A stretch of 60,960 nt of DNA from an uncultured Candidatus Saccharibacteria bacterium. GTDB lineage: Bacteria; Patescibacteriota; Minisyncoccia; Minisyncoccales; CG1-02-41-26. The stretch covers positions 1 to 60,960 of the forward strand of contig CAYGBM010000025.1 in NCBI GenBank assembly GCA_964348225.1, in the 5' to 3' direction. Under the pieces are notes generated by a model. The model did not search any database and was not told the DNA's origin. It saw nothing but the letters and a program-made list of their open reading frames with translations. How positions within the stretch are numbered: position 1 is the stretch's first letter; each line of letters opens with the position of its first letter. Shown here piece after piece: positions 1 through 15,935 of the stretch. The translations under genes and the position numbers were made by a program.

Positions 1-81
1 CAAGCGTTGTCGCATAGACGGAGCCAGTTACTCACTAATATAACCGAAACAAGCAATTTCCCCCTTCAAGAGAGGGGATTT
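1..81 (+). repeat. Cassette-boundary element copy A (long form; left part cut by window edge)
   Basis: Core GTTGTCGCATAGACGGAGCCAG at 6-27, 26-nt block at 27-52, hairpin at 59-78. Nearly identical to the copy at 6018-6136. Confidence 0.85.
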
Positions 82-82
82 A

Positions 83-91
83 TGATAGAAT
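83..91 (+). promoter_or_regulatory. Extended -10 promoter (TGaTAGAAT), ATG 7 nt downstream
   Basis: TG at 83-84, TAGAAT at 86-91, start codon at 98. This geometry predicts a leaderless mRNA. Confidence 0.5.
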
Positions 92-97
92 AAAATA

Positions 98-925
98 ATG
101 AAACCAACAATCTTTTTAATCGGTCAAAATATAAATATATATTCTGGTGACGGAAAACATCAGTTTGCGAGAACAGGTGAGATGGGTTTTTACCATCTAA
201 AGAAAGCTGGAGCAACAGGTGTGATTTTAGGGCATTCAGAAGTAAAGGATGAACCAGAAGTAGTTAATAAAAAATGGAAATCAGCTTTAGAATATAATTT
301 ATTTGATAACGTTGTTTTAGTAGGAGGAGATTGGGAAGATTTAGAAAAAGGATGGGATAAGAGCAATGAGCAAGAAATAAAAGGAATGAAAAATAAGTTC
401 AAAGACAAACTCCTAACCATATTGAGTAGCATAGATAAAGAAGCCATTGAAAAAACAGTTTTTGGCTATGAACCAAGCTGGGGAACAAGAGGAAGTGGCA
501 AAGAAGATGTTTTACCGCCTCAACCACCACAGATAGAGAATATGTGTTCGTTTATGAGAGAAATAATAGAAAAAGAGTATGGCAAAGACATATCAAGGGA
601 TATAAGGATTATTTACGGAGGCAGTTCTTCTCCTGAAAGAACAGAAGAGATTATGCCTTCAGATAATGTTGATGGTTTGATTTTAGGTTCAGCTGGTAAA
701 ACAGTGGATTGGGCTCAAAAAATAGGAGAAGGAATACAAAAAGCTATGAGAGTCAAACAATCAGTTAGGAAGGGAGTATTAGTATTTAACTGGAAGGCGT
801 ACGAATTAGAAGAGCCATATGCAGATTTCTTAAAAGTTATAAATAGTTTTGACAGTAATCTTATTGAGATTTATCTGGCTCCCATAGCAACAGAATTGCT
901 GGAGGTAAAGAATTTGTTGACGTAA
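98..925 (+). CDS. Triosephosphate-isomerase-like protein, apparently circularly permuted
   Basis: TIM motifs appear out of order: GQN..TGE..GHSE, then YEPSWGTRGSG, then IIYGGS, and the normally N-terminal FNWK...APIA segment sits at the C-terminus. Confidence 0.6.
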   Translation: MKPTIFLIGQNINIYSGDGKHQFARTGEMGFYHLKKAGATGVILGHSEVKDEPEVVNKKWKSALEYNLFDNVVLVGGDWEDLEKGWDKSNEQEIKGMKNKFKDKLLTILSSIDKEAIEKTVFGYEPSWGTRGSGKEDVLPPQPPQIENMCSFMREIIEKEYGKDISRDIRIIYGGSSSPERTEEIMPSDNVDGLILGSAGKTVDWAQKIGEGIQKAMRVKQSVRKGVLVFNWKAYELEEPYADFLKVINSFDSNLIEIYLAPIATELLEVKNLLT

Positions 926-987
926 CGTTATAGCATAGACGGAATCAGCAATTTCCCCTTTCAAGAGAGGGGATTTTGTTTTGTTTT
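924..987 (+). repeat. Cassette-boundary element copy B (short form)
   Basis: AACGTTATAGCATAGACGGAATCAGCAATTTCCCCTTTCAAGAGAGGGGATTTTGTTTTGTTTT. It starts inside the stop codon of the upstream ORF and lacks the 26-27 nt block. Confidence 0.85.
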
Positions 988-1103
988 GCCTGCCGAAGCC
1001 TTGGCGAAGGTAGGGGGTTGATTTTTAGTGGTTTTTGTTTAAGATGGTTTTAGCTATACGAGTGAGTTCTATGTGGTCATTTTGAGAGAAAGGAGAGGTA
1101 ATT

Positions 1104-1814
1104 ATGGACGAGCTAAAGGACAAAATTATCGTGGCTTTGGATGTTGACACTGAAGAGGAAGTTAAAGCTCTTGTAGAGACGCTTGGCTCCCAGGTCGGAT
1201 GTTTCAAGATCGGTTTGCAGTTAATTACTTCCATAGGGCCACCTCGAGCTATACAACTTGTCAAAGATTGCGGCGGAGAGGTGTTTTTCGATGGTAAGTT
1301 TGATGATATTCCCAATACTGTCGGCAATGCCTCCAGAGTGCTTGCAGAATTCGGTGTCAAGATGTTCAATGTCCATGCTTCTTGTGGTATTGCGGCTATG
1401 ATGGAGGCGGTCGATAACAAAGGGAATGCACTGGTTCTCGCCGTCACCGTACTGACTTCTCTTGAGGAGAATAATGCCCATTTGATATTCGGAAAGCCAA
1501 GTAAGGCAGCAGTGTTGCAGTTTGCCAGAGATGCCAAGAACGCTGGTATGGACGGGGTTATCTGCTCACCTCAAGAACTGGAACTTCTGGGTCAGCAGCC
1601 AGACCTTAAAGACTTCTTGAAGGTGACTCCTGGCGTAAGGCCCGTGTGGGCTGCCACAGGGGATCAGAGGCGGACAATGACACCTGGCGAAGCAATGAAG
1701 GCTGGAGCGACTGCACTCGTGATAGGACGTCCTGTCAGACAACCCCCAGAGGAAATTGGTGGCCCAGTGGAGGCCGTCAAACGTATACTTGATGAAATAG
1801 CAGGATACGTATAG
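1104..1814 (+). CDS. pyrF: Orotidine-5'-phosphate decarboxylase
   Basis: Motifs IVALD, KIG, DGKFDDIPNT, VTPGVRP, GDQRRTMTPGEA and LVIGRPV. A strong SD (AAAGGAGAGG) lies upstream. The gene is visibly more GC-rich than its neighbours. Confidence 0.9.
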   Translation: MDELKDKIIVALDVDTEEEVKALVETLGSQVGCFKIGLQLITSIGPPRAIQLVKDCGGEVFFDGKFDDIPNTVGNASRVLAEFGVKMFNVHASCGIAAMMEAVDNKGNALVLAVTVLTSLEENNAHLIFGKPSKAAVLQFARDAKNAGMDGVICSPQELELLGQQPDLKDFLKVTPGVRPVWAATGDQRRTMTPGEAMKAGATALVIGRPVRQPPEEIGGPVEAVKRILDEIAGYV

Positions 1815-1868
1815 CAACAATGCAATACGTTTTGCGTATCAATAACCCACTTAGGACTCATGATTCAT

Positions 1869-1904
1869 AAAGCTTGCTTAGTAAAGTATGAAAGGCAAGC
1901 TTTT
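1869..1904 (+). terminator. Intrinsic terminator after pyrF
   Basis: AAAGCTTGC / GCAAGCTTT 9-bp stem followed by TTTT. Confidence 0.7.
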
Positions 1905-1920
1905 CAATTATTCTGCCAAT

Positions 1921-2087
1921 AAACAGGTTCTCCTCCTTCGATAAATCTATCCGTCGCTACTACGTAGCTATGAAATAGCGTAGTATAGCTTCGGAAGGAC
2001 GCAGTAACGTGGTTGTATAGACGGAGCCAGTTAGTCGCTTATTATAACCACAACAAGCAATCTCTCCTTTCAAGAGAGGGGATTTTT
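1921..2087 (+). repeat. Cassette-boundary element copy C (long form with extra 82-nt palindromic insert)
   Basis: AAACAG, then an 82-nt imperfect palindrome (1927-2008), then GTGGTTGTATAGACGGAGCCAG, the 27-nt block, a hairpin and a T-run. Confidence 0.8.
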
Positions 2088-2124
2088 TAGAAAGTATAGT
2101 GAGTAGCAGGGCGGGGTAAATTTA

Positions 2125-2133
2125 TGGTATACT
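2125..2133 (+). promoter_or_regulatory. Extended -10 promoter (TGgTATACT), ATG 7 nt downstream
   Basis: TATACT at 2128-2133 and start codon at 2140. No SD is present. Confidence 0.5.
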
Positions 2134-2139
2134 GGGACA

Positions 2140-2505
2140 ATGAGAACTCAAACCAAAAACTTTGTTGAGGTTTGTATCTACGAGGTCAAGCCAGAAAAGA
2201 CTGAAGAGTTTGAACAATTAGTAGACAGAGTTGCAAAACACCACAAAAACTTTAGGGGTGTTATTGATGTTAAATATATCAAAAGAACCCACAGACCGGT
2301 TGATTTTGGAGGAGCAACAAAAGGAAAGCCCGCAATAAAGCTAACAAAGAAGCCTCAAAGCATAACCTATATTCTTTATTGGGAGCTTAAAGACGAGAAA
2401 GTTCATGCTAAAGCTACTAAGGCAGGGCTTGAGAGATTTTTTAAAGAATTTAGAAGATGCTTGATAAAACCACCGAAGATAATTTTAGGCGAAAGAATCC
2501 AATAA
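2140..2505 (+). CDS. Small hypothetical protein, possibly ABM/Dabb-like alpha+beta barrel
   Basis: 121-aa ORF between boundary elements. It weakly resembles antibiotic-biosynthesis-monooxygenase-type domains (VCIYEVKPEK..EEFEQL..; ..LYWELKDEKVH). Confidence 0.35.
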   Translation: MRTQTKNFVEVCIYEVKPEKTEEFEQLVDRVAKHHKNFRGVIDVKYIKRTHRPVDFGGATKGKPAIKLTKKPQSITYILYWELKDEKVHAKATKAGLERFFKEFRRCLIKPPKIILGERIQ

Positions 2506-2540
2506 ACAGGTTCAAAAAATCGCCAAGAAGGCGGTTTTTG
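2504..2540 (+). repeat. Minimal boundary variant (AAACAGGTT motif plus simple terminator)
   Basis: AAACAGGTTC overlaps the stop codon at 2503-2505. It is followed by a CGCC/GGCG hairpin and TTTTT. The conserved core is absent. Confidence 0.5.
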
Positions 2541-2565
2541 TGTTAAAATAGAACAGACAAACAAT

Positions 2566-3330
2566 ATGGAAAAAGTGTATTTCAAGAATTCAAAAGGAGA
2601 TAATCTGTGTGGGGTATTATCAAATCCAACCTCAAGCAAAGAGAAAGCAATTATAATAGTTTGTCACGGATTTAGCACCAGCAAAGACAGTCGGACATAT
2701 AAAAGATTAGAAGAAACTTTAAATAGCCATCAGATGTCAACCTTTCGCTTTGATTTTTTTGGTCACGGAGAGAGCGAGGGGAGGTTTGAAGATATAACAA
2801 TTTCGGAAGCAGTTGATGATATTTTAAATGCCATTTCCTTTTTAAAGAACAAAGGTTATTCCAAAATTGGTCTTTTCGGTTCAAGTTTTGGAGGTATTGC
2901 CAGCATCATAACAGCTTCAAAAACAAATGATTTGTTTATTCTTGCTTTAAAATCTCCAGTATCAAACTATCAAGAAAGAGATTTAGCAGTGAAGACGAAG
3001 GAAGAATTGAAAGATTGGAAAGAAAAGGGTTATAAATACTATGTTAGTGGAGACGGCAGAAGATTGAAACTAAATTATACCTTTTTTGAAGATTTTGAAA
3101 ATAATAATGGCTATGAAGCTGCAAAGGAAATAAAGATACCGACTTTAATAGTTCACGGAGACAAAGATGAATCTGTGCCAATTGAACAGAGCAAAAAAAC
3201 AGCAAATTTAATTGAAGATTGCAAGTTAGAGGTTGTTAAAGGGGCAGACCATAGATATTCCAATCCTAAAGATTTTGAGAAGATGTTAAGTTTAATTTCT
3301 GGTTTTTTATTAGAAAATCAGAATAGGTGA
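2566..3330 (+). CDS. Alpha/beta-fold hydrolase
   Basis: HGF oxyanion region, GHGESEG, nucleophile elbow GSSFGG, then HGDKDESVP and ADH (Ser-Asp-His order). Confidence 0.8.
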   Translation: MEKVYFKNSKGDNLCGVLSNPTSSKEKAIIIVCHGFSTSKDSRTYKRLEETLNSHQMSTFRFDFFGHGESEGRFEDITISEAVDDILNAISFLKNKGYSKIGLFGSSFGGIASIITASKTNDLFILALKSPVSNYQERDLAVKTKEELKDWKEKGYKYYVSGDGRRLKLNYTFFEDFENNNGYEAAKEIKIPTLIVHGDKDESVPIEQSKKTANLIEDCKLEVVKGADHRYSNPKDFEKMLSLISGFLLENQNR

Positions 3331-3357
3331 TATTCTAAATCACAACCCCTACTGTAA

Positions 3358-3453
3358 GACAGCCCCTAACGTTGTCGTATAGACGGAGCCACTTAGTCCC
3401 TTATTATAACCGCAACAAGCAATTTCCCTTTTCAAGAGAGGGGATTTTGTTTT
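3358..3453 (+). repeat. Cassette-boundary element copy D (long form)
   Basis: GACAGCCCCTAACGTTGTCGTATAGACGGAGCCACTTAGTCCCTTATTATAACCGCAACAAGCAATTTCCCTTTTCAAGAGAGGGGATTTTGTTTT. Confidence 0.85.
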
Positions 3454-3512
3454 GGGTATTAAATTCAATGCGTTTTGTTTGACCGTCAATAAGGGGCGTA
3501 TTATGATGTAAT

Positions 3513-4307
3513 ATGGAGCCTAAAATAGATTATATAACCGGAGATAACTTTGGTGAGTATTGGATTGTTGTGGCAGAGTTTTATCACGGTAAGTTTATGT
3601 CACCACGTTATCCAGACTTGCTGATGCAATTTCTTAAGCGACTTGGCGTTAAGAAAGTTCTTGACGCTGCCTGTGGTATTGGAGAGCCAAGTTTGGATGT
3701 TGTTGAAAAAGGATTTCCTCTTAGCTTAAGTGATGGCGATGCATCAATGTTAGGTGTTTGCCAAGCTCGTGCCAAGGAAAGAGGACTTGATATTCCTATA
3801 TTCCATTCAAAATGGATTGACTTGCCCAAGAAGACAAAAGAGATTTATGATGCTGTTTTATGTCTTGATAGTTCAATAACCTATGTTAATACTTGGGCTC
3901 AAGGAGAGCCAGCTATCAGCATTAACAGAGCACGCTACAACATACTTGAAAGCTTGAAAGCTTTTTATGATATTCTGGCCCCTGGAGGATATGTTGTGAT
4001 TGGGCTTGCCAAGTATGCTTTTGAGGATTCGGATGAATTAATTATTGACTATGGTACTCGTTTGGTTGAGGGTGTACCTGTGCATCATATATGGAAATTG
4101 AAATGGGATTTTGCGACAAAAATCAAGTCTTTCACGCTTATATTTAAGTTTGCAGGAAAGACCCACGTGAAAGAAATGTTGGGTTATATGCTTTTGCCGA
4201 ATGAGTTAAAGACATTGCTACGTAAAGCAGGTTTTCCCGATATTTCTATTCAGGAGATTGCTCCAGGAGAGTATGACAACAACTTTGTTGCGCAGAAGCT
4301 TTTATAA
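3513..4307 (+). CDS. Class I SAM-dependent methyltransferase
   Basis: Motif I VLDAACGIGEPS, post-I acidic residue, and LAPGGYVVI. Confidence 0.7.
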   Translation: MEPKIDYITGDNFGEYWIVVAEFYHGKFMSPRYPDLLMQFLKRLGVKKVLDAACGIGEPSLDVVEKGFPLSLSDGDASMLGVCQARAKERGLDIPIFHSKWIDLPKKTKEIYDAVLCLDSSITYVNTWAQGEPAISINRARYNILESLKAFYDILAPGGYVVIGLAKYAFEDSDELIIDYGTRLVEGVPVHHIWKLKWDFATKIKSFTLIFKFAGKTHVKEMLGYMLLPNELKTLLRKAGFPDISIQEIAPGEYDNNFVAQKLL

Positions 4308-4399
4308 AATAGGTTCTAACCCTTCAATGGCTTCAGGGCGAGCATTGTCTCATAGACGGAGCCAGCAATTTCCCCTTTCAAGAGAGGGGATTTTGTTTT
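4308..4399 (+). repeat. Cassette-boundary element copy E (short form)
   Basis: AAATAGGTTCTAACCC...CATTGTCTCATAGACGGAGCCAGCAATTTCCCCTTTCAAGAGAGGGGATTTTGTTTT, directly after the stop at 4305-4307. Confidence 0.85.
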
Positions 4400-4439
4400 A
4401 GATAGGGTGGTTCAAAGGTATTGAACCATTACATCGGGA

Positions 4440-4468
4440 TTGACATGTTTAAATAGTTGGTGTAAGTT
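4440..4468 (+). promoter_or_regulatory. Sigma70-type promoter (TTGACA-17-TAAGTT)
   Basis: -35 at 4440-4445 and -10 at 4463-4468. It lies in a block homologous to 6137-6181. Confidence 0.5.
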
Positions 4469-4525
4469 ATTAATGTTGGTGTAAATTGTTAGATCGTTAA
4501 GTTGAATTAGACAAAGGAGAAAAAA

Positions 4526-4741
4526 ATGGACATTCCAAAAGATAAAGGATATCCAGCTGACAGTGTGCAGTGTGACGGTTGTGGAGGACACGGATGTCAA
4601 ACGTGTAATGATAGGGGGTGGTTAACTCCACGAGACCATCCAGCGGGACGGCGATGTATGAGGTCATCCTGCAATAAACCACTTCACCCAACAGATGTTG
4701 CTGTCTATTGTTCTAATGAGTGCGCCTCAGATGACGCATAG
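4526..4741 (+). CDS. Small Cys-rich zinc-finger protein
   Basis: CDGCGGHGCQTCNDRGW is a DnaJ-like CxxCxGxG zinc-finger motif, with further Cys pairs. SD AAGGAG lies 6 nt upstream of the ATG. Confidence 0.5.
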   Translation: MDIPKDKGYPADSVQCDGCGGHGCQTCNDRGWLTPRDHPAGRRCMRSSCNKPLHPTDVAVYCSNECASDDA

Positions 4742-4806
4742 TGTCGATTCCATTACAAGACATCATTCGTCTTGGATTTCTTGGAGCATTAATTTCTCCT
4801 TGAAAT

Positions 4807-4853
4807 GAACCTCCTCTAATCAGTTAAAGTTATTGAAGGAGGTTCTTCTTTTC
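4807..4853 (+). terminator. Intrinsic terminator
   Basis: GAACCTCCT / AGGAGGTTC 9-bp stem followed by TTCTTTTC. Confidence 0.65.
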
Positions 4854-4870
4854 TAAAAGTTCTATTTCTT

Positions 4871-4947
4871 GGCGTATAGGAGCCAGTTAGTCGGTTATTA
4901 TAACCGCAACAAGCAATTTCCCCTTTCAAGAGAGGGGATTTTGTTTT
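4871..4947 (+). repeat. Cassette-boundary element copy F (long form, core shortened by 3 nt)
   Basis: GGCGTATAGGAGCCAGTTAGTCGGTTATTATAACCGCAACAAGCAATTTCCCCTTTCAAGAGAGGGGATTTTGTTTT. It contains the perfect palindrome GGTTAT-t-ATAACC. Confidence 0.85.
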
Positions 4948-4963
4948 GCTTTCAGCGGTTTTG

Positions 4964-4972
4964 TGGTAGAAT
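4964..4972 (+). promoter_or_regulatory. Extended -10 promoter (TGgTAGAAT)
   Basis: The same TGTGGTAGAAT string recurs at 9429-9439, in both cases just downstream of a boundary element. Confidence 0.45.
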
Positions 4973-4999
4973 AGGATAATACTAAGTAACTACAAAAAC

Positions 5000-5971
5000 A
5001 TGTGGAAGTGGCTCAACAAAGGAATATCTACACCAATAGCTGTAGCTATTGTATTGATATTAGTAATCATAGTAGGTAGTTTTGCCTGGTGGCAATATGG
5101 GGAAATACGGAAGGAAAAAGATGAATTTTCTTGTAGAGATGATAATGATTGTATTTATGGATGGCGAGATAAATGTATCATGAAGTGCGTAAATAGAAAT
5201 ACTCCTAAGATGGTGCCTTGCCCCTTAATTAAACCAGCTGTCTGGTCTTCTTATATTTGGGACAATATATCTTGTGAATGCGTTAATAATAAATGTGTTG
5301 AAGACAAAGAAGCATTTTGCCAAAAAGCCTGCGAAGACTTTAGAAATGATAGAGATGAAATTGCTAAATCCGCTTTTTTAGCTGAAAGATGTGGAGATAT
5401 ATTGGAGTGCGAAGGATTAGAAAAAACAGATATATGGACGACAATATGGAAAGAGTTTTTATTAAGTTCACAAAATATTTCGGAAGATTATTTTAATAGT
5501 CATATTTCTGTTGAATCTTTTGATCTTTCAGATTGGAAGCAAGGAACTTCATTTAGAATGAACTATGATATTAACATTGACTGGGCAACTATAAGATCCT
5601 GCGACCATTTTTTAATCAAAAGAAAAGGCGAAACAGACTATCTAACAAAAGACGAAATTTATTCTATTCCGACCCATGAAGGGGGACTAAAGGATAGAGT
5701 ACTGTTGAGTAATGCTTGTGGTAACTCAAAGAAGCTGAAAGAGTTTGACAAAATAATAAGTCAGAGTGAGGTAGCACCAAAACTAAAGCAATGTCACAGC
5801 AGTATAGAATGGTCATCTGAAAAAGCAGTAATATTAACCAATGAAGGCAAGTTAGTTGTTAACGCTTACGGAACAATTGATCATGATCAAAATAAATGTA
5901 AGTTCGCCTCTCTGGATTTAGAAGCAGGAGAACTTATTGAATGTAGAGATACAACATGTTGGGTTGATTAA
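5000..5971 (+). CDS. Membrane-anchored Cys-rich protein of unknown function
   Basis: N-terminal hydrophobic helix (PIAVAIVLILVIIVGSFAWW) followed by a Cys-rich region. I recognise no family. Confidence 0.5.
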   Translation: MWKWLNKGISTPIAVAIVLILVIIVGSFAWWQYGEIRKEKDEFSCRDDNDCIYGWRDKCIMKCVNRNTPKMVPCPLIKPAVWSSYIWDNISCECVNNKCVEDKEAFCQKACEDFRNDRDEIAKSAFLAERCGDILECEGLEKTDIWTTIWKEFLLSSQNISEDYFNSHISVESFDLSDWKQGTSFRMNYDINIDWATIRSCDHFLIKRKGETDYLTKDEIYSIPTHEGGLKDRVLLSNACGNSKKLKEFDKIISQSEVAPKLKQCHSSIEWSSEKAVILTNEGKLVVNAYGTIDHDQNKCKFASLDLEAGELIECRDTTCWVD

Positions 5972-6017
5972 GGATGAAGACCAAGGGATACGTTAAGGGA
6001 ATTGTGATTAACTTACG

Positions 6018-6136
6018 AAACAGGTTCTAACCCTTCGACAGACTCAGGGCAAGCGTTGTCGCATAGACGGAGCCAGTTAATCACTATTATAACCACAACA
6101 AGCAATTTCCCTTTTCAAGAGAGGGGATTTTGTTTT
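6018..6136 (+). repeat. Cassette-boundary element copy G (long form)
   Basis: AAACAGGTTCTAACCCTTCGACAGACTCAGGGCAAGC, then the core, the 27-nt block, a hairpin and TTTTGTTTT. Confidence 0.9.
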
Positions 6137-6175
6137 AGATAGAGTAGTGCTAAGGTATTGAACCGGAACATAAGC

Positions 6176-6203
6176 TTGACAGTGATGCATGGTATGATAA
6201 TAT
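6176..6203 (+). promoter_or_regulatory. Sigma70-type promoter with extended -10 (TTGACA-16-TGaTAATAT) for the TA pair
   Basis: -35 at 6176-6181, TG at 6195-6196, -10 at 6198-6203. Confidence 0.6.
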
Positions 6204-6230
6204 AGATGTAATACAAATTATTACAAAAAT

Positions 6231-6446
6231 ATGCGAGAAGTAATTAATATATCACTACCAAAAGAGTTAAATAGGTCTGTAGAAGAAATAGTAAAAAAGG
6301 GTAACTACGCTACTAAGAGCGAGTTTTTTCGCGAACTTTTGCGCCTTTGGATTGAAGGCAAAATTCTCCGAGAGTTAGCAGAAAGTCGAAAAGAACTTGC
6401 TTCTGGCAGGGGAAAAATCCTAAGATCATTGAAGGACTTACGATAA
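6231..6446 (+). CDS. Ribbon-helix-helix (CopG-like) antitoxin
   Basis: 71 aa. ISLPKEL..VEEIVKKGNYATKSEFFRELLRLW is a typical RHH pattern. It lies directly upstream of a RelE-like ORF. Confidence 0.75.
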   Translation: MREVINISLPKELNRSVEEIVKKGNYATKSEFFRELLRLWIEGKILRELAESRKELASGRGKILRSLKDLR

Positions 6447-6464
6447 TTTCATTTTCGTATTCAA

Positions 6465-6731
6465 ATGAAAATTTTATATTCGAGCAAATTCGCTCGTGAG
6501 TATCGAAAGTTACCGTTAAGAGTTAAGAGAATTGCCGAGAAGAAAGAACAAATTTTTAGAAAGAATCCTTTTGATCCAAGACTCAAAACTCACAAGTTGA
6601 AAGGAAGCCTTAAAGGGTTTTTTTCTTTTTCTATAAATCAAAAATATCGAATTATTTTTGAATTTGCTAATTCCAATATAGCTTGGTTTCATTCCGTTGG
6701 AGAACATTCGATTTATAAATTATGGGATTAA
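6465..6731 (+). CDS. RelE/YafQ/ParE-superfamily toxin
   Basis: 88 aa. The sequence DPRLKTHKLKGSLKGFFSFSINQKYRIIFEF is typical of RelE/YafQ mRNA interferases. Confidence 0.75.
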   Translation: MKILYSSKFAREYRKLPLRVKRIAEKKEQIFRKNPFDPRLKTHKLKGSLKGFFSFSINQKYRIIFEFANSNIAWFHSVGEHSIYKLWD

Positions 6732-6769
6732 GCTTCTCTTGTAAACTGTCCATCGCTGGGCAATTTTTA

Positions 6770-6829
6770 GTTGTCGCCAAACAGGTTTACCCCGTATAAA
6801 ACTTTGTTTTTATGTGGGGCGGTTTTTTG
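6770..6829 (+). repeat. Boundary variant (GTTGTCGCC plus AAACAGGTT plus a different terminator)
   Basis: GTTGTCGCCAAACAGGTTTA, followed by the CCCCGTAT/ATGTGGGG hairpin (6790-6819) and a T-run at 6823-6828. Confidence 0.55.
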
Positions 6830-6836
6830 ATAGAAT
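6828..6836 (+). promoter_or_regulatory. Extended -10 promoter (TGaTAGAAT), ATG 7 nt downstream
   Basis: TAGAAT at 6831-6836 and start codon at 6843. Confidence 0.5.
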
Positions 6837-6842
6837 TAGTAT

Positions 6843-7382
6843 ATGAAATTGCTAAAAGAAATTAATGACTATGATGTTGGTCTTGGTCCCAAAGAGAGTT
6901 TTGAAAAGAGATACCAGATAAGAAAAGCTGGCAGAGCTGTTTTGTTTAATGGAGATAAAATATCTCTACAGTATGTAGCAAAACACAAATTTCATAAACT
7001 CCCTGGCGGAGGTATAGAAGCAGGGGAAAGCATTGAGGAAGGTCTAAAAAGAGAAGTTCAAGAAGAGGCGGGATGCGATATAAATATTGGCGACCCTATT
7101 GGAATGATAATTGAATATCGTGACGAGTTTGACCAGATTCAAATATCTTATTGCTTTTTTGCTCAAGTAGAAGGTGACATTGGCGAATCAGTTTATGATG
7201 AAGGAGAAGTTGAAGAAAATTTTAGACCAATGTGGGTTACTCTTGACGAGGCGATTGATTTAATAGAAAAAGATGACACCGACGACTACCAGGGAAAGTT
7301 TATCAAAATAAGAGATTTAACTTTATTAAAGGAAGCTAAAAGGCTCTTAGAGAGTAAAACAGCCCCTAACATTGTCGCATAG
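6843..7382 (+). CDS. NUDIX hydrolase
   Basis: Nudix box GGGIEAGESIEEGLKREVQEEAGC. Confidence 0.85.
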   Translation: MKLLKEINDYDVGLGPKESFEKRYQIRKAGRAVLFNGDKISLQYVAKHKFHKLPGGGIEAGESIEEGLKREVQEEAGCDINIGDPIGMIIEYRDEFDQIQISYCFFAQVEGDIGESVYDEGEVEENFRPMWVTLDEAIDLIEKDDTDDYQGKFIKIRDLTLLKEAKRLLESKTAPNIVA

Positions 7383-7427
7383 CCGGAGTCAGCATCCAAA
7401 AACCCTTATAAAATAAGGGTTTTTGGA
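7358..7427 (+). repeat. Cassette-boundary element copy H (core variant with a different hairpin)
   Basis: AACAGCCCCTAACATTGTCGCATAGCCGGAGTCAGCA, then a 15-bp perfect hairpin. The stop codon of the NUDIX ORF (7380-7382) lies inside the core. Confidence 0.75.
7395..7427. terminator. Bidirectional hairpin between convergent genes
   Basis: TCCAAAAACCCTTAT-aaa-ATAAGGGTTTTTGGA, a 15-bp perfect stem with A/T-rich arms. Confidence 0.7.
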
Positions 7428-7522
7428 TTGAGGATAGGGTGAGGAATAAGATAGTTTATATATGTTTGTACAATTTCTACTCTTTCGAGACAATGGTCAA
7501 CAAATTTTTTTATTTAAACTGA

Positions 7523-8314
7523 CTAAAGATGCGGAAACACTGCGTTTGAAAACTCCCTGGTTAAGGAAACCCCATATTTGATATATTCAGGGAAATTATC
7601 ATTATCAACTACCATAAATTCTGTGTCAGGATTATTTTCTTGAAGATCCCTCAGTATATCAAGTTTTTGGAGTTCACTTCCTGATGAAATGCTGGCTGCG
7701 ACCAGATCCATATTCTCATTGTTTCTGACAATCGAGAAGCTTTTTATAAGTTCTTTAACATCATTAAGATCAAGGCCAGAAGGGTCCAAGCTGGAGCTCT
7801 CGGTGGTGTAGATGGAATCTTTATCGATAAACTCTTCAACCTCTTTAAGGTGTTTTGGGTCCTTTAGATCTTTTTCAACTCTGTCTTTTTGTCTGATGGT
7901 TATGAAACCGATCTTAGATTCAGGATAGAGTGCCCTTAAATTTTTAAGCAATACTTTGGTTGCAGGCCTGACATAAGTCGCTACCGGCTCTTTACTTCCA
8001 TTTTCCCATTTGGCTTCAGCGATCGTATCATCAATATCAAAAAGAATCTCGTGCTTAGAACTTGGTGTTTGAGAATGCATCCGTTTCGCTTCTTCCCAAA
8101 CCCACTTTAAAAACCTTTTTTCTGATTCAAGGCATTTTTCAATCCTTTCTTCGAACCTCTCTGGCTCAAGACCGACTTTTGGAGCCCTCTCAGCTACGTA
8201 TTCTTTATAGAAACCCCGTGCCTCTTGCTCAACACCTTCCCATATTTTTTCTATTTCTTCATGACCGGACTCTTTCTCTGGAATGTTAAACTGTGGTCCT
8301 CTTTCAATTCCCAT
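7523..8314 (-). CDS. HAD-superfamily-like hydrolase with unknown N-terminal region
   Basis: FDIDDTI (DxDxT motif I) and a late MVVDND acidic motif. A candidate -10 TATAAT lies on the minus strand at 8352-8357. Confidence 0.5.
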   Translation of the reverse strand: MGIERGPQFNIPEKESGHEEIEKIWEGVEQEARGFYKEYVAERAPKVGLEPERFEERIEKCLESEKRFLKWVWEEAKRMHSQTPSSKHEILFDIDDTIAEAKWENGSKEPVATYVRPATKVLLKNLRALYPESKIGFITIRQKDRVEKDLKDPKHLKEVEEFIDKDSIYTTESSSLDPSGLDLNDVKELIKSFSIVRNNENMDLVAASISSGSELQKLDILRDLQENNPDTEFMVVDNDNFPEYIKYGVSLTREFSNAVFPHL

Positions 8315-8550
8315 ATTTTTAACTAGTTTAAGATTTTCAATCTTTTTCTAAATTATAGTGAAAATAGCGCAAAAAGTAAAACAAGCCTCGAGCTTTTTTT
8401 GGTTAAACTTACAAGTTTTAATCTCCTTAACGCTTTCTTCTTTGTTAAGGATATTGTAGTACTTTTAAGAAGACAGTGTGTCAACGAAAACTGTGGTCAA
8501 TGGGTTACACCAAAACTCCATCTGGAATTTCTGGGGAAATACCCATCAAA

Positions 8551-8580
8551 AAGTTTCGAACGTTGTTCAGTCCCCGGAAC
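8551..8580 (+). repeat. Partial boundary-element variant I
   Basis: AAGTTTCGAACGTTGTTCAGTCCCCGGAAC matches the left part of copy J (9332-9360). No hairpin module follows. Confidence 0.65.
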
Positions 8581-8722
8581 AAAGTAGTATGTTGTGATGT
8601 TGCGAGGAGAATGCGCGACACCCTATTTTTTAGTAGCCGTTATGCGCTTATCATGATTTCGTCTGGCTCGAGCCATGATTGCGCATAACGGCTTTGAATA
8701 TATGAGCTATGTTGTTTGCATT

Positions 8723-9022
8723 TCACACACCCATTTGTATATCGTACACCATAGAAACAGCTCCGTTGCGGTGTCTAACTTCTTCTTCACAGACTACCAC
8801 ACCATTGAGAAGCCGAAAGATTTCTAAGATATTCCCTTGGATGTCTTTTGCCCCTCCTAACTTTTTTGTGACTGGCCACAAGAAGTGAGCATCGCTCCCA
8901 TCTAATGAGATCTTCACTCTGTAGAGTGCATCCAGCTTTTTTTCCTTATGGCGCGGAGCACCTGGTCCAGCCTCTTTTCTGCACGGCTCTTCAATGAGAT
9001 AAAGCCTGTATGTGAAAGCCAT
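8723..9022 (-). CDS. Hypothetical protein
   Basis: ORF with an ATG at 9022 preceded by GGAGG at 8-nt spacing. The track start at 9031 is a GTG that abuts the SD. I recognise no family. Confidence 0.5.
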   Translation of the reverse strand: MAFTYRLYLIEEPCRKEAGPGAPRHKEKKLDALYRVKISLDGSDAHFLWPVTKKLGGAKDIQGNILEIFRLLNGVVVCEEEVRHRNGAVSMVYDIQMGV

Positions 9023-9331
9023 TGTGTTCACCTCCTTTTGCTGTCAGATACATTTCTTTGGGAAAGAAATGTAGCCAGAAACAAAATACCCGCCTTAAGT
9101 AGGCGAGTATTCCAGAGCAAGCTTTTTGGTTCTTTCTCTCTAAAGCCAACCTAAGAACACGCGTCTACAAGAGACGGTCGTAGTTCCTGTGGTTGTTGTC
9201 TTAGAGTAATAATTCATAAAGCAATAAAGCAATGTTCTATATATATAACATATTTATTGCGCAGAGTCAACGGAAAATAGGGGTCAACTCTATTTTTCTA
9301 TTGTTTCAAAGAACGACAGGGCATGTTGGCC

Positions 9332-9423
9332 AGTTTCGAACGTTGTTCAGTTCCCGGAGCCACTTATTCACTATTATAACCGCAACAAGCAATTTCCCCT
9401 TTCAAGAGAGGGGATTTTGTTTT
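9332..9423 (+). repeat. Cassette-boundary element copy J (long form, variant core)
   Basis: AGTTTCGAACGTTGTTCAGTTCCCGGAGCCACTTATTCACTATTATAACCGCAACAAGCAATTTCCCCTTTCAAGAGAGGGGATTTTGTTTT. Confidence 0.85.
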
Positions 9424-9430
9424 GGATTTG

Positions 9431-9439
9431 TGGTAGAAT
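9431..9439 (+). promoter_or_regulatory. Extended -10 promoter (TGgTAGAAT)
   Basis: Lies immediately after boundary copy J and 21 nt upstream of the ATG at 9460. Confidence 0.45.
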
Positions 9440-9459
9440 GGAAGAAGAAAGCCAGACTT

Positions 9460-9939
9460 ATGAAAAAGAAAACTATTCTCATAACCATACTTAGCATCAT
9501 AATTGTTATTGTGGTTGGCGGATTTATCCTCTATTTCAGCTTGCCAGAACCTTTAAGCAGAGGACATAATGATGCACGTGTCTACTCAGCTATTAGCCAA
9601 GCAAGGACTGTAATGGTTTATCTTGAATCGTCAGAAGGTAATTACGATAGCTTTAACTGTGAGCATAAAGACATAGCAAGCATTTGTGAGGAGATTGAAT
9701 TTCGTGGAGGCGAAGCAATAATTGCCCGTGATAAAGCAAGCAGTTCTGAATCTGCTTGCATTTATTCCCTTTTGCCGTATCGTTCCAGTAAAAAGCAGGG
9801 CTTTTGGAGGAAAACAAAAGATTATTGGCTCTGTACTGATTCAAATGGTCAGAAAGGCTACACAACGATTGATCCAGGCAGCAATGGTTATTGCCTTGAA
9901 GGAGAAAGTGCGGTTTGCCCTCCGTTCGTTGAAGAGTAG
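9460..9939 (+). CDS. Membrane-anchored Cys-containing protein, possibly pilin-like
   Basis: The internal ATG at 9460 gives MKKKTILITILSIIIVIVVGGFIL (TM helix), followed by DARVYSAISQARTVMVY. The upstream part of track ORF 9232-9939 reads through repeat J. Confidence 0.55.
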   Translation: MKKKTILITILSIIIVIVVGGFILYFSLPEPLSRGHNDARVYSAISQARTVMVYLESSEGNYDSFNCEHKDIASICEEIEFRGGEAIIARDKASSSESACIYSLLPYRSSKKQGFWRKTKDYWLCTDSNGQKGYTTIDPGSNGYCLEGESAVCPPFVEE

Positions 9940-9950
9940 CAGATTGGGGT

Positions 9951-10017
9951 GCCATCCGGGGAGTCAGTCAGAACGATAATATTCTCTGAAATTCTGCCAA
10001 GGACGGCGGATTTTTTT
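9951..10017 (+). repeat. Degenerate terminal boundary element K
   Basis: GCCATCCGGGGAGTCAGTCAG resembles the copy H core CATAGCCGGAGTCAGC. It is followed by the TCTGCC/GGCGGA hairpin (9993-10010) and TTTTTTT. Confidence 0.45.
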
Positions 10018-10103
10018 GGTTGATTTCATTTTACTTTGTTTGAAGTATAATGATATCGGAGGATTAAAGGCCGATGTTTTAATTATGAGTACGATAATTA
10101 TTT

Positions 10104-10766
10104 ATGAAAAATATGAAAAAGATACTGACTATTTGTCTATTGGTTGTTTTTGTATTGGTGGCTTTTCAGATAAAAGCTGCCCCAAAGCCGCGAGGTGGAG
10201 GATTGGAAGCGCCTTCTAACCTTGAGGCCACAGCTGTCTCTTCTTCTCAGATTGATTTAAGCTGGCAAGATAACTCAAGTAAAGAGACTGGCTTTAGAAT
10301 TGAAAGAAGTCCAAATGGGCAAGATTTTTCTGAAATTGATGAGGTTGGAGCCAATGTTACCAGTTATTCTGATACTGACTTGTCTCCAAGCACCACTTAC
10401 TACTACCGGGTAAGGGCTTTTAGGCAGACTGGCCAGAAAACGACTTATTCTGACTATTCCAATACAGCACAAGCAACCACCCTTGAGGTTGCGCCAGATG
10501 CTCCAAGTAATTTAAGCGCTATAGCTTCAACCAGCGATTACGTGGCGCTTAATTGGCAGGATAATTCTGACAATGAAGACGGCTTTAGTATAGAAAGAGG
10601 CACTAATGGAATAGATTTTTGGGAGATTGCTACAACCTCAGTGGATGTTTATTGGTATTTTGATTATAATGTGACAAGTAGTGTTACCTATTATTATCAA
10701 GTCAGAGCGTTTAATGAGGTTGGGTATTCTGGATATTCAAATGTAGCCTCAACAACCGTCCCTTAG
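10104..10766 (+). CDS. Secreted or anchored protein with two fibronectin type III domains
   Basis: Signal-like N-terminus. Two repeats follow of PSNL.A.A.S...I.L.WQDNS..E.GF.IER..NG..F.EI......V..Y.D..L....TYYY.VRAF. Confidence 0.8.
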   Translation: MKNMKKILTICLLVVFVLVAFQIKAAPKPRGGGLEAPSNLEATAVSSSQIDLSWQDNSSKETGFRIERSPNGQDFSEIDEVGANVTSYSDTDLSPSTTYYYRVRAFRQTGQKTTYSDYSNTAQATTLEVAPDAPSNLSAIASTSDYVALNWQDNSDNEDGFSIERGTNGIDFWEIATTSVDVYWYFDYNVTSSVTYYYQVRAFNEVGYSGYSNVASTTVP

Positions 10767-10788
10767 TCTTTAGAGAGAAAGACGAAAT

Positions 10789-10823
10789 AAAAGAGAGTAC
10801 TTAGATACTCTCTTTTATTTTTT
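10789..10823. terminator. Bidirectional intrinsic terminator between convergent genes
   Basis: AAAAGAGAGTA / TACTCTCTTTT 11-bp stem followed by ATTTTTT. The loop overlaps the stop codon of the minus-strand gene. Confidence 0.75.
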
Positions 10824-12063
10824 GTATCATTTTTTTGATGTCTTTGTTTGTGTAGAAGTTTTGGAGAGGGAAGTTGACGATTCTTCTGGCTACCTCAACG
10901 GTGTTGGGGAATTGGGAGAGGTTAATATTATATTTTTTTTGAACCTCTTTATTCAAGATGATTGGGGTGTGCCAGATGCGGGTGGCAAAGATCCCCTTTT
11001 TTCTTAAGCTGACCACAAACTTATCTCTCGGTATATTTTTGGGCACTAAAGCGCTTAAAAAAGTGAAGTGGTTCAAACCAGAGCGATCGCTGCCATTTGA
11101 ACCAGTTGGATTTTGGACTTCAAAGCCCATTTTTTTTAATTCTTGCTGGAAGAAGGAACCGAGTTCCTTCCTTTGATTCAGGGTTGTTGCAAGGTTTTTC
11201 ACCCCGTTAGAAATCCTCTCCCGAGGCAAAGTAGACGTGGGCGGCACTTTATTTCTAACGGGGCTTAGTTGCCAAGCAAAGATGTTTAAAGATACTCTGT
11301 TTATTTTTGAGGGGCGTGGTATTTTTTCTCCTCTGATATATTTAGGAGCGATTTTCCCGGCGTATTTTTTAAACAGGAAACTGAAGCAGGGAAAGCAATT
11401 TAAAAGAGAAACAAAATCCCGCAGAGAAAAATGTGTTGGAGGCAGATCTTTCGGATTCCCGCCTGCACCGAGGCTTCGGCGGGCAGGTCGGATTTCTGGT
11501 TTCGGATTTTTAATTATTGCCATTCCTCCCCGTAAGGTAGGGAAGAGCTTATAAAGACTGAAAAGGGCTGCATCCCCAAAATTGCCTGTATAGTTGCCTT
11601 TGTATTGTACACCTAAACTGTGGGCGCAGTCCTCAATAACCTTGAGGTTGTATTTTTTTGCCACAGCTAATATTTTATCTAAATTGGCTGGCAGCCCATA
11701 GGTGTGGCAGACAACCATGGATTTAACTTCTGGATTCATTTTTTCTTCAATTTGGGCTGGGTCTATGTTAAAAGTTTCTTTTTCAATATCTAAGAAAACA
11801 GGCAAGATATTATATTCTAAAAAAAGAGGAAAGAAAATGTCGCAGATGTAAGAGGGTATCATCATTTGGGAATTTTGGAGCTGAAGTTCTTCAACAATCA
11901 GACGAAAGGCAGAGCGGCCCATATCAGTAAGATAATTCTCTTTTTCAGGAAACATTTCTTTGAGCTTTTCTCTGATATGGGAATCTGGTTTTTTTAGAAA
12001 ACAAAAAAAGAGTTTGGCTAAATTGCTGATATTAAATTTTATTTGAGGGTGAACGAAATACAT
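10801..12063 (-). CDS. DegT/DnrJ/EryC1/StrS-family aminotransferase-like protein with a long internal insertion
   Basis: Motifs IEDCAHSLG, GNFGDAALFSLYKLFP (Lys motif) and a C-terminal fold region. About 100 aa of extra sequence lies between them. Confidence 0.65.
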   Translation of the reverse strand: MYFVHPQIKFNISNLAKLFFCFLKKPDSHIREKLKEMFPEKENYLTDMGRSAFRLIVEELQLQNSQMMIPSYICDIFFPLFLEYNILPVFLDIEKETFNIDPAQIEEKMNPEVKSMVVCHTYGLPANLDKILAVAKKYNLKVIEDCAHSLGVQYKGNYTGNFGDAALFSLYKLFPTLRGGMAIIKNPKPEIRPARRSLGAGGNPKDLPPTHFSLRDFVSLLNCFPCFSFLFKKYAGKIAPKYIRGEKIPRPSKINRVSLNIFAWQLSPVRNKVPPTSTLPRERISNGVKNLATTLNQRKELGSFFQQELKKMGFEVQNPTGSNGSDRSGLNHFTFLSALVPKNIPRDKFVVSLRKKGIFATRIWHTPIILNKEVQKKYNINLSQFPNTVEVARRIVNFPLQNFYTNKDIKKMIQKIKESI

Positions 12064-12101
12064 AAATATAATACTAATCTACGAATGATACACGAATACC
12101 A

Positions 12102-12356
12102 CTAATGTAATACTCGTTTAGGGACTATATATTTCTGTCGAAAGTTAATAATTAATCCTAGATTTTTATTGTAGCTTTGTAAGTATCTTTTCATTTGATA
12201 ATAGTCCTCTTTGGTTACTATTCTTTTAGTCTTAAAGTCTACCACAACTTTGCCTTCTATTATAAAGTCGGGGATATTCCTTCCTGGCCTTTCTCCTTGA
12301 AATGACGGAGGAATAGGGTGTTCTCTTTCATATATTATTTTATTTTCTTTTAACAA
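12102..12356 (-). CDS. GxxExxY-family (PD-(D/E)xK-like) protein, possibly 5'-truncated
   Basis: The PDFIIEGKVVVDFKTKR..YYQMKRYLQ..LGLIINF pattern matches the family. The frame stays open and homologous up to 12440 but has no ATG there. Confidence 0.55.
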   Translation of the reverse strand: MLKENKIIYEREHPIPPSFQGERPGRNIPDFIIEGKVVVDFKTKRIVTKEDYYQMKRYLQSYNKNLGLIINFRQKYIVPKRVLH

Positions 12357-12585
12357 CTGCTCAAACGCATCTGCATATTGTTTCTCATTCCTAAATCGGC
12401 CTAGTTGATTATAAATCTTATAACAGAGACCATAAACTTTTTATTAGTAGCATTAGAATAAATTTGTAGATTAGTATTATTAAATAATACAAGAAAAATG
12501 CTTGAATTAAAATACGAATGGGTTTATAATATTATATTCTATTTTAAAGGGGCGCACGGACTTGCTCGTGGGTCTTTGTAAAAAT

Positions 12586-13305
12586 ATGGAGAACAAAAGA
12601 AATGTCCGCGGTTTAATTCTATGCGGTGGGCTTGGTAAAAGGTTGATGCCCTTGACCATGGAGCTGCCAAAGCCTCTGGTAGAAATTAGAAGGGGCTTTA
12701 CTATTTTAGACAAGCAGCTTTTAGACCTGAAAGAGGCTGATATAAAAAAAGCTTTTTTACTGGTTGGTTATTTGGGAGACAAAATTAAAGAAAGATACAA
12801 AGACAGGTGGAACGATATAGAGATAGGCTATTTTGCAGAGGAGCAGCCCATGGGCACACTTTGGGCCATCAAGAATGCTTTAGCAAACATAAAGCAGGAG
12901 GGTGATGTTGTGGTGCGGAACGGTGATATTGTTTCTGACTTCAGCATAAGAAAGTTTGCAGAAACCTCTAAAGCTTCTCCTTATCTCTTGACGCTTGCTG
13001 TAACTAAGATGCTTAGCCCCTACGGGGTTTTAAAGTTGGACGGTGACAAAATCACAGATTTTGTTGAAAAACCACTTTTGGACTTGTATATTAATGCTGG
13101 TATTTACTATATTAAAAAAGACGGCTTTCCTTATTTCTTTGAAAATTATTCAGAAAAGGATGTTGAAAAAACAGTTTTTCCAAAATTGACTAAAGAGGGC
13201 CGGACAGGCTATTATTATGAAGATGTTTTTTGGGAGTCAGTTGATACAATAAAAGATTTGGAAAGAGTGAGGAGAGAGTTTGAAAAAAGACAAAACCAAA
13301 ACTAA
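12586..13305 (+). CDS. Sugar-1-phosphate nucleotidylyltransferase
   Basis: GLILCGGLGKRLMPLTMELPKPLV signature. The first ATG in frame is at 12586; the track start at 12562 is not an ATG. Confidence 0.8.
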   Translation: MENKRNVRGLILCGGLGKRLMPLTMELPKPLVEIRRGFTILDKQLLDLKEADIKKAFLLVGYLGDKIKERYKDRWNDIEIGYFAEEQPMGTLWAIKNALANIKQEGDVVVRNGDIVSDFSIRKFAETSKASPYLLTLAVTKMLSPYGVLKLDGDKITDFVEKPLLDLYINAGIYYIKKDGFPYFFENYSEKDVEKTVFPKLTKEGRTGYYYEDVFWESVDTIKDLERVRREFEKRQNQN

Positions 13306-13310
13306 GTTAT

Positions 13311-14219: not shown

Positions 14220-14225
14220 AAGCAT

Positions 14226-15059: not shown

Positions 15060-15070
15060 AAAACCATTCT

Positions 15071-15925: not shown

Positions 15926-15935
15926 TCCTTTGATA

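Follow-up and report, generated by a model that had tools for sequence, protein, structure and literature searches.

A natural circular permutant of triosephosphate isomerase encoded in a repeat-bounded gene array of an uncultured Candidatus Saccharibacteria bacterium

Triosephosphate isomerase (TIM) serves as the textbook example of a (beta/alpha)8 barrel and is a standard model in studies of catalysis, folding, and barrel evolution. How a TIM-like chain can begin in the middle of this barrel, and whether the repeats that flank its gene had any part in the rearrangement, are the questions raised by the left end of contig CAYGBM010000025.1 from an uncultured Candidatus Saccharibacteria bacterium (assembly GCA_964348225.1), analyzed here over 60,960 nucleotides (the window). 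The open reading frame (ORF) at positions 98-925 of the forward strand, which starts with ATG and encodes 275 amino acids followed by a TAA stop, had been described from its letters alone as a circularly permuted TIM-like protein encoded as a cassette, with the speculation that a circular cassette intermediate had permuted it (the original prediction). Our analysis confirmed that the encoded protein, hereafter pTIM, is a complete TIM barrel in rotated order, that is, a natural circular permutant. We assign a probability of about 0.82 to the explanation as a whole, in which pTIM is a permuted TIM that forms a closed barrel and a dimer and acts as an isomerase, and in which an ancient permutation was followed by later capture of the gene at this locus.

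All the motifs that the original prediction had named in rotated order are present in the ORF, and profile comparisons assigned them to two canonical segments in exchanged positions. The Pfam TIM profile (PF00121) matched pTIM residues 20-204 with profile positions 65-236 of 245, at 100.1 bits against a cut-off of 20.1. In a phmmer search against the PDB, the top match was the Thermotoga TIM 1b9b, with pTIM residues 9-200 on chain residues 57-238 and a second, weak stretch that placed residues 224-274 on chain residues 3-55, NWK on NWK. A hidden Markov model (HMM) built from 30 canonical TIMs of related genomes matched native pTIM at HMM positions 70-235 and no others; when pTIM was written twice, the same model gave one match across the junction, with HMM positions 5-235 on residues 228 to 475 of the doubled chain. 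Aligned separately with hhalign, pTIM residues 2-213 in native order corresponded to canonical positions 60-254 (score 220), and the C-terminal 60 columns alone corresponded to canonical positions 1-53 in the NWK register (pairwise P 0.003). Placing residues 216-275 first produced an end-to-end alignment of 243 columns over canonical positions 1-254 and raised the score from 220 to 239. The chain thus departs from the canonical order (beta1 first, alpha8 last) and runs from beta3 to alpha8, through a linker, and then through beta1-alpha1-beta2-alpha2.

This division can be read directly along the forward strand of the gene. Residues 1-215, from beta3/alpha3 to beta8/alpha8 (approximately canonical TIM 56-250), are encoded at 98-742, which includes the codons of T26 (173-175), H46 (233-235), E48 (239-241), and E125 (470-472) as well as the YGGS motif and the loop-8 motif LGSAG. 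Positions 743-772 encode residues 216-225, a variable linker from the old C-terminus (alpha8) to the old N-terminus (beta1), marked by indel-rich columns in an alignment of 18 sequences (A1) and, in the structural model described below, by a helix at 203-220 followed by a strand at 226-231. The transplanted beta1-alpha1-beta2-alpha2 segment, residues 226-275, occupies 773-922 and carries N231 (788-790) and K233 (794-796).

An AlphaFold2 model of pTIM, computed from an 18-sequence alignment, reached a pLDDT of 89.7 and a pTM of 0.89 and contained eight beta/alpha units in the order beta3 to beta8, beta1, beta2. Its strands beta3 to beta8 lie at residues 5-9, 41-44, 72-75, 121-124, 170-173, and 193-196, and its C-terminal elements are alpha8 (203-220), beta1 (226-231), alpha1 (241-249), beta2 (256-261), and alpha2 (264-274), so that the C-terminal segment is modeled as the canonical beta1-alpha1-beta2 region, as had been proposed. 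Only TIMs ranked at the top when the model was compared by Foldseek and VIA-align. In the latter, model residues 1 to 214 superposed on TIM chain residues of about 56 to 250, with a Z-score of approximately 20 and a root-mean-square deviation of 2.1-2.5 Å over 191-202 aligned residues, and the predicted model forms a closed (beta/alpha)8 barrel that superposes on solved TIMs. Because model residues 1 to 214 fall on this part of the TIM chain, the chain cut sits in the alpha2/beta3 turn, on the barrel face away from the active site.

A homodimer prediction yielded a score of 0.86, compared with 0.00 for the best of three controls, with at least 96% of contacts common to the runs and a partner pLDDT of at least 91; in calibration, the mark was reached by 20 of 30 solved homomers and by 1 of 23 solved monomers. 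The tightest modeled contacts set T26 of one chain against N231, K233, H46, and E48 of its partner, which is the canonical TIM arrangement, with loop 3 reaching the active site of the partner as in a TIM-type dimer. The dimer model also sets the transplanted Asn and Lys beside His and Glu, providing indirect evidence for the placement of N231 and K233 by H46 and E48. Most likely, pTIM would fold as a normal closed (beta/alpha)8 barrel and assemble into a TIM-type homodimer.

The same arrangement is conserved among relatives. A word-based homologue search returned 66 full-length clusters with 36-83% identity, and these clusters together with the examined loci formed a conservation set of 79 sequences, all of which start within a few residues of one point and share a common end point. 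R25, H46, E48, E125, W128, N231, and K233 are invariant in 79/79, so the Lys, His, and Glu highlighted by the original prediction (K233, H46, and E125) are retained throughout, and T26 is invariant in alignment A1. According to hhalign, T26 corresponds to Thr75, H46 to His95, E48 to Glu97, E125 to Glu165, N231 to Asn11, and K233 to Lys13; pTIM therefore possesses the TIM catalytic residues together with the loop-3 Thr. In loops 6-8, YGGS is kept, W128 lies in loop 6, and loop 8 reads LGSAG rather than VGGAS, with G-S in place of G-G.

How far the rotated topology extends was clarified by a word-free profile search of 1.84 billion representatives, which gave 25 matches at E ≤1e-30. Among the best 150 matches, many proteins contained the whole permuted profile, positions of about 20-269, unbroken. 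Some of these proteins (such as P0082 and P0087) are stand-alone permuted TIMs nearer to canonical TIM, and many are domains of proteins of 750 to more than 4000 amino acids in which Pfam recognized PGK, enolase, aldolase-like, or PGM domains alongside; no Pfam match was found in the N-terminal 183 amino acids of one fused relative, P0068. No canonical-order protein that outscored the permuted ones was found in this search. The shared-word search had found no longer or fused homologues, which reflects a limit of that method, since the word-free search detected them. A tree was built from 57 canonical and 63 re-permuted sequences; every permuted one fell on one side of a single branch (SH-aLRT 96), and the family from Patescibacteria and DPANN archaea formed a clade with 100% support on a long stem. 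This quick tree, whose canonical sample was biased toward the best profile hits and whose alignment may be affected by re-permutation, supports common descent of pTIM and the other permuted TIMs that share its cut. We place pTIM in a divergent Patescibacteria/DPANN branch of stand-alone proteins within a wider group of permuted TIMs; the less diverged proteins of this group are fused to glycolytic enzymes.

Tandem-duplicated and fused forms, which the original prediction had suggested looking for, do exist elsewhere. In P0081 (640 amino acids), two complete canonical TIM domains, each most closely related to the other, are fused in tandem; in P0075 (1189 amino acids), a permuted TIM is joined by additional partial TIM pieces and by a phosphoglucomutase part. 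Both have the look of stages in a permutation by duplication. A route of duplication, fusion, and trimming predicts such states. The permutation would most plausibly have originated through tandem duplication, fusion, and loss of the outer parts. Because the 79 relatives share their termini, most of the checked loci lack flanking repeats, and the permuted TIMs lie on one side of the tree, the sequences indicate that the permutation is old and long predates the cassette.

The distribution of the permuted gene identifies it as an accessory component of its host. The genome (981 kb in 50 contigs, 97% complete) also encodes a canonical tpiA, the gene that the original prediction had proposed seeking: it is full-length (contig C33, 3747-4499), matches at 300 bits, and passes the NCBIfam equivalog TIGR00419 at 179.9 bits. 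Of the 40 nearest genomes, most carry a canonical TIM and 0/40 carry the permuted form; given the canonical tpiA in the same genome and the absence of the permuted gene from the nearest relatives, pTIM is an accessory paralogue. Canonical and permuted TIMs also occur together in three of five further genomes (G055, G056, and G058), and in an archaeal metagenome-assembled genome (MAG; G057), which may be incomplete, the permuted form alone was seen. Species-representative genomes carry the permuted gene in Paceibacterota, Saccharibacteria, Peregrinibacteria, Peribacteria, Roizmanbacteria, and Beckwithbacteria and, among DPANN-type archaea, in Aenigmatarchaeota, Woesearchaeota, and other archaea, so that the stand-alone family is patchy across Patescibacteria and DPANN archaea. 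In the family tree, archaeal copies appear in at least three places, and the window protein belongs to a tight 28-member clade of Paceibacterota-like sequences. The complete Beckwithbacteria genome CP011210 has the permuted form and an archaeal-type TIM-like gene of 214 amino acids (L064, 517-1161). The latter, the sole other TIM-like gene there, shows the unusual motifs NHAE and FEDPKLIGG, which presumably replace those typical of archaeal-type TIMs.

The neighbors of the permuted gene vary among loci. In Saccharibacteria, it directly follows canonical tpiA at four of the six loci retrieved from the genome_contigs collection (L039, L042, L044, and L049), with a gap of at most 5 nt or an overlap, and pgk lies downstream in L044 and L049, the two tpiA-pTIM loci long enough to show it; this adjacency may have been left by a tandem duplication or may indicate that the two proteins act jointly. 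Other neighbors include, among others, a HAD phosphatase (L043 and L048), a PfkB sugar kinase with PFOR (L034), a CDGSH protein, and MscL. At several loci, a tRNA gene is adjacent: tRNA-His (L035), tRNA-Ser (L075), and tRNA-Leu (L069 and L070), with a partial tRNA copy also in L069. At an Aenigmatarchaeota locus (L036), the first 109 nt of the pTIM gene (7999-8107) are repeated 878 nt upstream (7121-7229) with 94% identity, and two 135-aa minus-strand ORFs lie between the copies; the duplication looks like an insertion with a long target duplication.

In the window, the gene is indeed bounded tightly by boundary elements, as the original prediction had stated. A long copy of the repeat occupies 1-81 of the forward strand (terminator-like hairpin at 61-77), where the window begins inside an array, and a short copy occupies 923-987 (hairpin at 954-973, followed by a T run), its first bases being the TAA stop of pTIM. 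An extended -10-like box, TGATAGAAT, lies at 83-91 on the forward strand, 6 nt ahead of the ATG, and no Shine-Dalgarno sequence was found ahead of the gene by inspection of the sequence or by a motif and distance scan. The pTIM mRNA is probably leaderless, since the start codon lacks a Shine-Dalgarno sequence and the -10 box stands 6 nt from it. The extended -10 boxes (TGnTAnnnT) at 83-91, 2125-2133, and 6828-6836 all precede by 6 nt the ATG of units without a Shine-Dalgarno sequence (ORFs at 98, 2140, and 6843), which suggests leaderless mRNAs for these three array units, and a like -10 layout occurs ahead of the pTIM genes in L035 and L075.

The array, at 1-10017, comprises approximately 10 single-gene units in one orientation, and after each comes a copy of one 35-85-nt element ending in a terminator hairpin. 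Its units include PyrF, an alpha/beta hydrolase, a methyltransferase, an RHH-RelE toxin-antitoxin pair (6231-6731), and a NUDIX hydrolase. About 10 copies of the element lie in the first 10 kb of the window and 13 in the genome (contigs C25, C49, C45, and C48); none was found in 38 same-family genomes or at the pTIM loci of relatives. The right part of the element is the terminator-like hairpin, and the stretch holds 31 terminator-like sites against 7.3 expected. An Rfam scan of 1-12000 returned chance-level matches only, no tRNA gene was detected in the window, and the tRNAs of the genome showed no convincing match to the element, a 13-nt match downstream of tRNA-Gln on contig C15 being probably due to chance. 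In GC content, the array and the remainder of the window did not differ. The array starts past the contig end; L067, a separate assembly of this DNA, reaches 826 nt farther to the left and adds one more cassette. This unit to the left of pTIM (L067, 145-807) encodes a TrpF-like barrel of the phosphoribosylanthranilate isomerase family that scores under the equivalog cut-offs, and the unit that follows pTIM on the right encodes a true PyrF equivalog. The three neighboring units, TrpF-like, permuted TIM, and PyrF, are all phosphate-binding (beta/alpha)8 barrels. Beyond the array, a sugar-nucleotide and polysaccharide cluster spans 10800-17100, with genes for a DegT-type aminotransferase, a nucleotidyl transferase, an epimerase/dehydratase, a UDP-glucose dehydrogenase, a TylF-like methyltransferase, and a GT4 glycosyltransferase.

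Among the relatives, L035 (a Patescibacteria MAG whose protein shares 66% identity) also has repeats around the gene. There, at 7845-9735, pTIM is the first unit after tRNA-His and is bounded by three copies of a 75-nt direct repeat, the first of which abuts the tRNA gene; the left end of the repeat resembles the tRNA 3' end, and the locus looks like serial site-specific insertion at a tRNA gene. L035 is the sole relative with flanking repeats, which were absent from the 12 other pTIM loci scanned.

The speculation that the gene was permuted locally, when the cassette left as a circle that opened again at another point, draws on these tight direct repeats here and in L035. However, 79 relatives from many phyla have identical termini, those 12 other loci carry no flanking repeats, the window repeat is missing from the 38 same-family genomes, and the permuted TIMs form one group that includes the fused multi-enzyme forms; moreover, re-opening inside the ORF would need a new start and stop exactly at the alpha2/beta3 turn. 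The cassette cannot have made the permutation, because the whole family and the fused forms elsewhere share it, and we give local re-opening of a circle almost no credence; this part of the original prediction did not hold. The description of the gene as encoded in a cassette is fair for this locus, yet the unit is very probably not an integron cassette. Movement by an IntI-type integrase at attC sites would agree with the co-oriented, unrelated single-gene units, the RHH-RelE pair among them, each followed by the same element, and the missing part of the array beyond the contig end could hold an integrase. Against this stand the only tyrosine recombinase in the 97% complete genome, which is Xer-like and lies on another contig (C41), the -10 boxes and terminators that the units bear themselves, and the left 50 nt of the element, outside the terminator, for which no significant fold was detected on either strand of the three long copies (z approximately 0; 0.2-0.6 versus shuffled sequences). 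An attC-like folding of the element was rejected, the only stable hairpin being the terminator. We therefore regard the integron explanation as improbable and favor an old permutation followed by capture, whereby one gene with a -10 box and a terminator of its own would later have been taken into this genome as a unit, between copies of a repeat specific to that genome.

The function of the permuted barrel invites a closer contest. Most likely, pTIM would catalyze an enediol(ate)-type aldose-ketose isomerization of a small phosphorylated sugar, with E125 as the base, H46, N231, and K233 as electrophiles, and loops 6-8 holding the phosphate. We infer an active isomerase because the catalytic machinery and the phosphate-binding loops are strongly constrained, and it is quite probable that the enediol(ate)-type chemistry is kept. 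A non-catalytic pseudoenzyme, or an artefact of assembly or ORF calling, has the unusual topology and nothing else in its favor and is very improbable, in view of catalytic residues invariant in 79 sequences, a confident fold model, and the presence of the gene in independent assemblies, with L067 matching pTIM at 99.9-100%; the original prediction had likewise dismissed an artefact. A 31-nt "insert" in L067, its sole difference, was rejected as a sequence variant and is a scaffolding duplicate marked by NN. Dihydroxyacetone phosphate (DHAP) and glyceraldehyde 3-phosphate (GAP) have up to an even chance of still being the main substrates; they are favored by the tpiA-pTIM(-pgk) gene order in Saccharibacteria and by the fusion of less diverged permuted TIMs to PGK and enolase. 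A related phosphosugar is possible but somewhat less so. In Brucella and Mycobacterium, TIM paralogues are known that act on tetrulose phosphates. An equally permuted protein with a new function, which would isomerize another phosphorylated sugar (a tetrulose or pentulose phosphate, say, or a doubly anionic compound) and be retained for salvage as an accessory enzyme, is likewise a possibility that we rate below evens. It would suit the coexistence with canonical TIM here and in the three further genomes, the position directly after tpiA in Saccharibacteria, and the HAD phosphatase or PfkB sugar kinase neighbors at some loci. The invariance of all catalytic residues, YGGS, and the loop-3 Thr speaks against it, as do the four Saccharibacteria loci where pTIM comes straight after tpiA, two with pgk next in line, the fused glycolytic forms, and the archaeal MAG, perhaps incomplete, with the permuted form only.

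Several observations weigh against the explanation that we prefer, most of them through the substrate. A shifted substrate is favored by the coexistence of pTIM with canonical TIM in very small (about 1 Mb) genomes, by the long stem of the family, and by its arginines in loop 3 and the lid: Arg25, invariant in the family, replaces the aromatic residue before the loop-3 Thr, and lid loop 6 is one residue longer, with R131 in 71/79 sequences, plus a 4-residue insert. The loop-8 G-S signature of the family points the same way, and the NCBIfam TIM equivalogs cover the same part of pTIM as Pfam at scores far under their cut-offs (TIGR00419, 49.2 versus 130.6; NF000722, 60.4 versus 293). As for the topology, the C-terminal 60 residues alone are weakly similar to beta1-alpha2 (2.8 bits in phmmer, in addition to the hhalign value above), both structure predictors were trained amid many TIM structures, the dimer score may partly be the predictor's memory of solved TIM dimers, and the single-origin tree could have been helped by alignment effects of re-permutation. 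The whole account is computational; within it, the topology, conservation, distribution, and repeats are shown directly, and the catalysis, substrate, dimer, leaderless expression, and mode of origin are deduced. A bolder scenario, rather unlikely in our judgment, would make pTIM a neofunctionalized phosphosugar isomerase with new loop-3 and lid arginines, whose gene, as a leaderless one-gene unit that drives its own expression, passes between episymbiotic bacteria and archaea and lands through non-integron recombination in repeat-bounded, often tRNA-adjacent arrays.

A literature search found no paper describing a permuted triosephosphate isomerase. For the Candidate Phyla Radiation (CPR), Jaffe et al. 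report only an archaeal-type TIM subclade. The sources that name these proteins call them plain triose-phosphate isomerase, and neither the protein libraries nor the genome records that were searched indicate the rearrangement; the permuted family is old, conserved, and without a description found in the literature. A conserved natural permutant that keeps every catalytic residue would provide a ready-made test of how chain connectivity affects barrel folding and lid dynamics, and P0075 and P0081, with partial or whole extra copies, would be direct examples of the duplication-fusion-trimming states. In ultra-small symbionts, the family would flag a second, horizontally exchanged central-carbon enzyme that annotation pipelines label as plain TIM. 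To this, the present locus contributes its cassette setting, its status as a paralogue, and a connection with the fused forms.

Set beside known systems, the array resembles integron gene cassettes in its co-oriented, unrelated single-gene units with one recurring element and a toxin-antitoxin unit inside, and differs in that its element lacks an attC-like fold, no IntI was found, and each unit has its own promoter-like box and terminator. Canonical TpiA (EC 5.3.1.1, PF00121; e.g., 1b9b, Geobacillus 1btm/2btm, and the C33 copy of this genome) shares with pTIM the bacterial/eukaryotic-type barrel, with 25-28% identity over 190-200 superposed residues, the same Asn, Lys, His, Glu, and Glu, the YGGS loop 7, the loop-3 Thr, and the predicted dimer geometry. 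In contrast to TpiA, pTIM is rotated, with beta3-alpha8 ahead of beta1-alpha2, and has a longer loop 6 (usually with Arg) with a 4-residue insert, G-S in loop 8, Arg before the loop-3 Thr, a 12-residue insert before alpha5, and NCBIfam equivalog scores below the cut-offs. The fused permuted TIMs (P0080, P0083, P0121, P0086, and P0075) have the same cut, starting near beta3 and ending after alpha2, and lie on the same side of the tree; they are domains of multi-enzyme proteins nearer to canonical TIM (Pfam scores of 167-267 bits versus 100 for pTIM), whereas the window protein is stand-alone, more diverged, and placed in a clade of its own with 100% support. Among (beta/alpha)8 barrels, natural circular permutation is known from transaldolase relative to class I aldolases and from GH70 glucansucrases relative to GH13 alpha-amylases. 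These cases belong to other barrel superfamilies, and they resemble pTIM in that a complete barrel is kept while the chain starts at another strand, the accepted route being duplication, fusion, and trimming.

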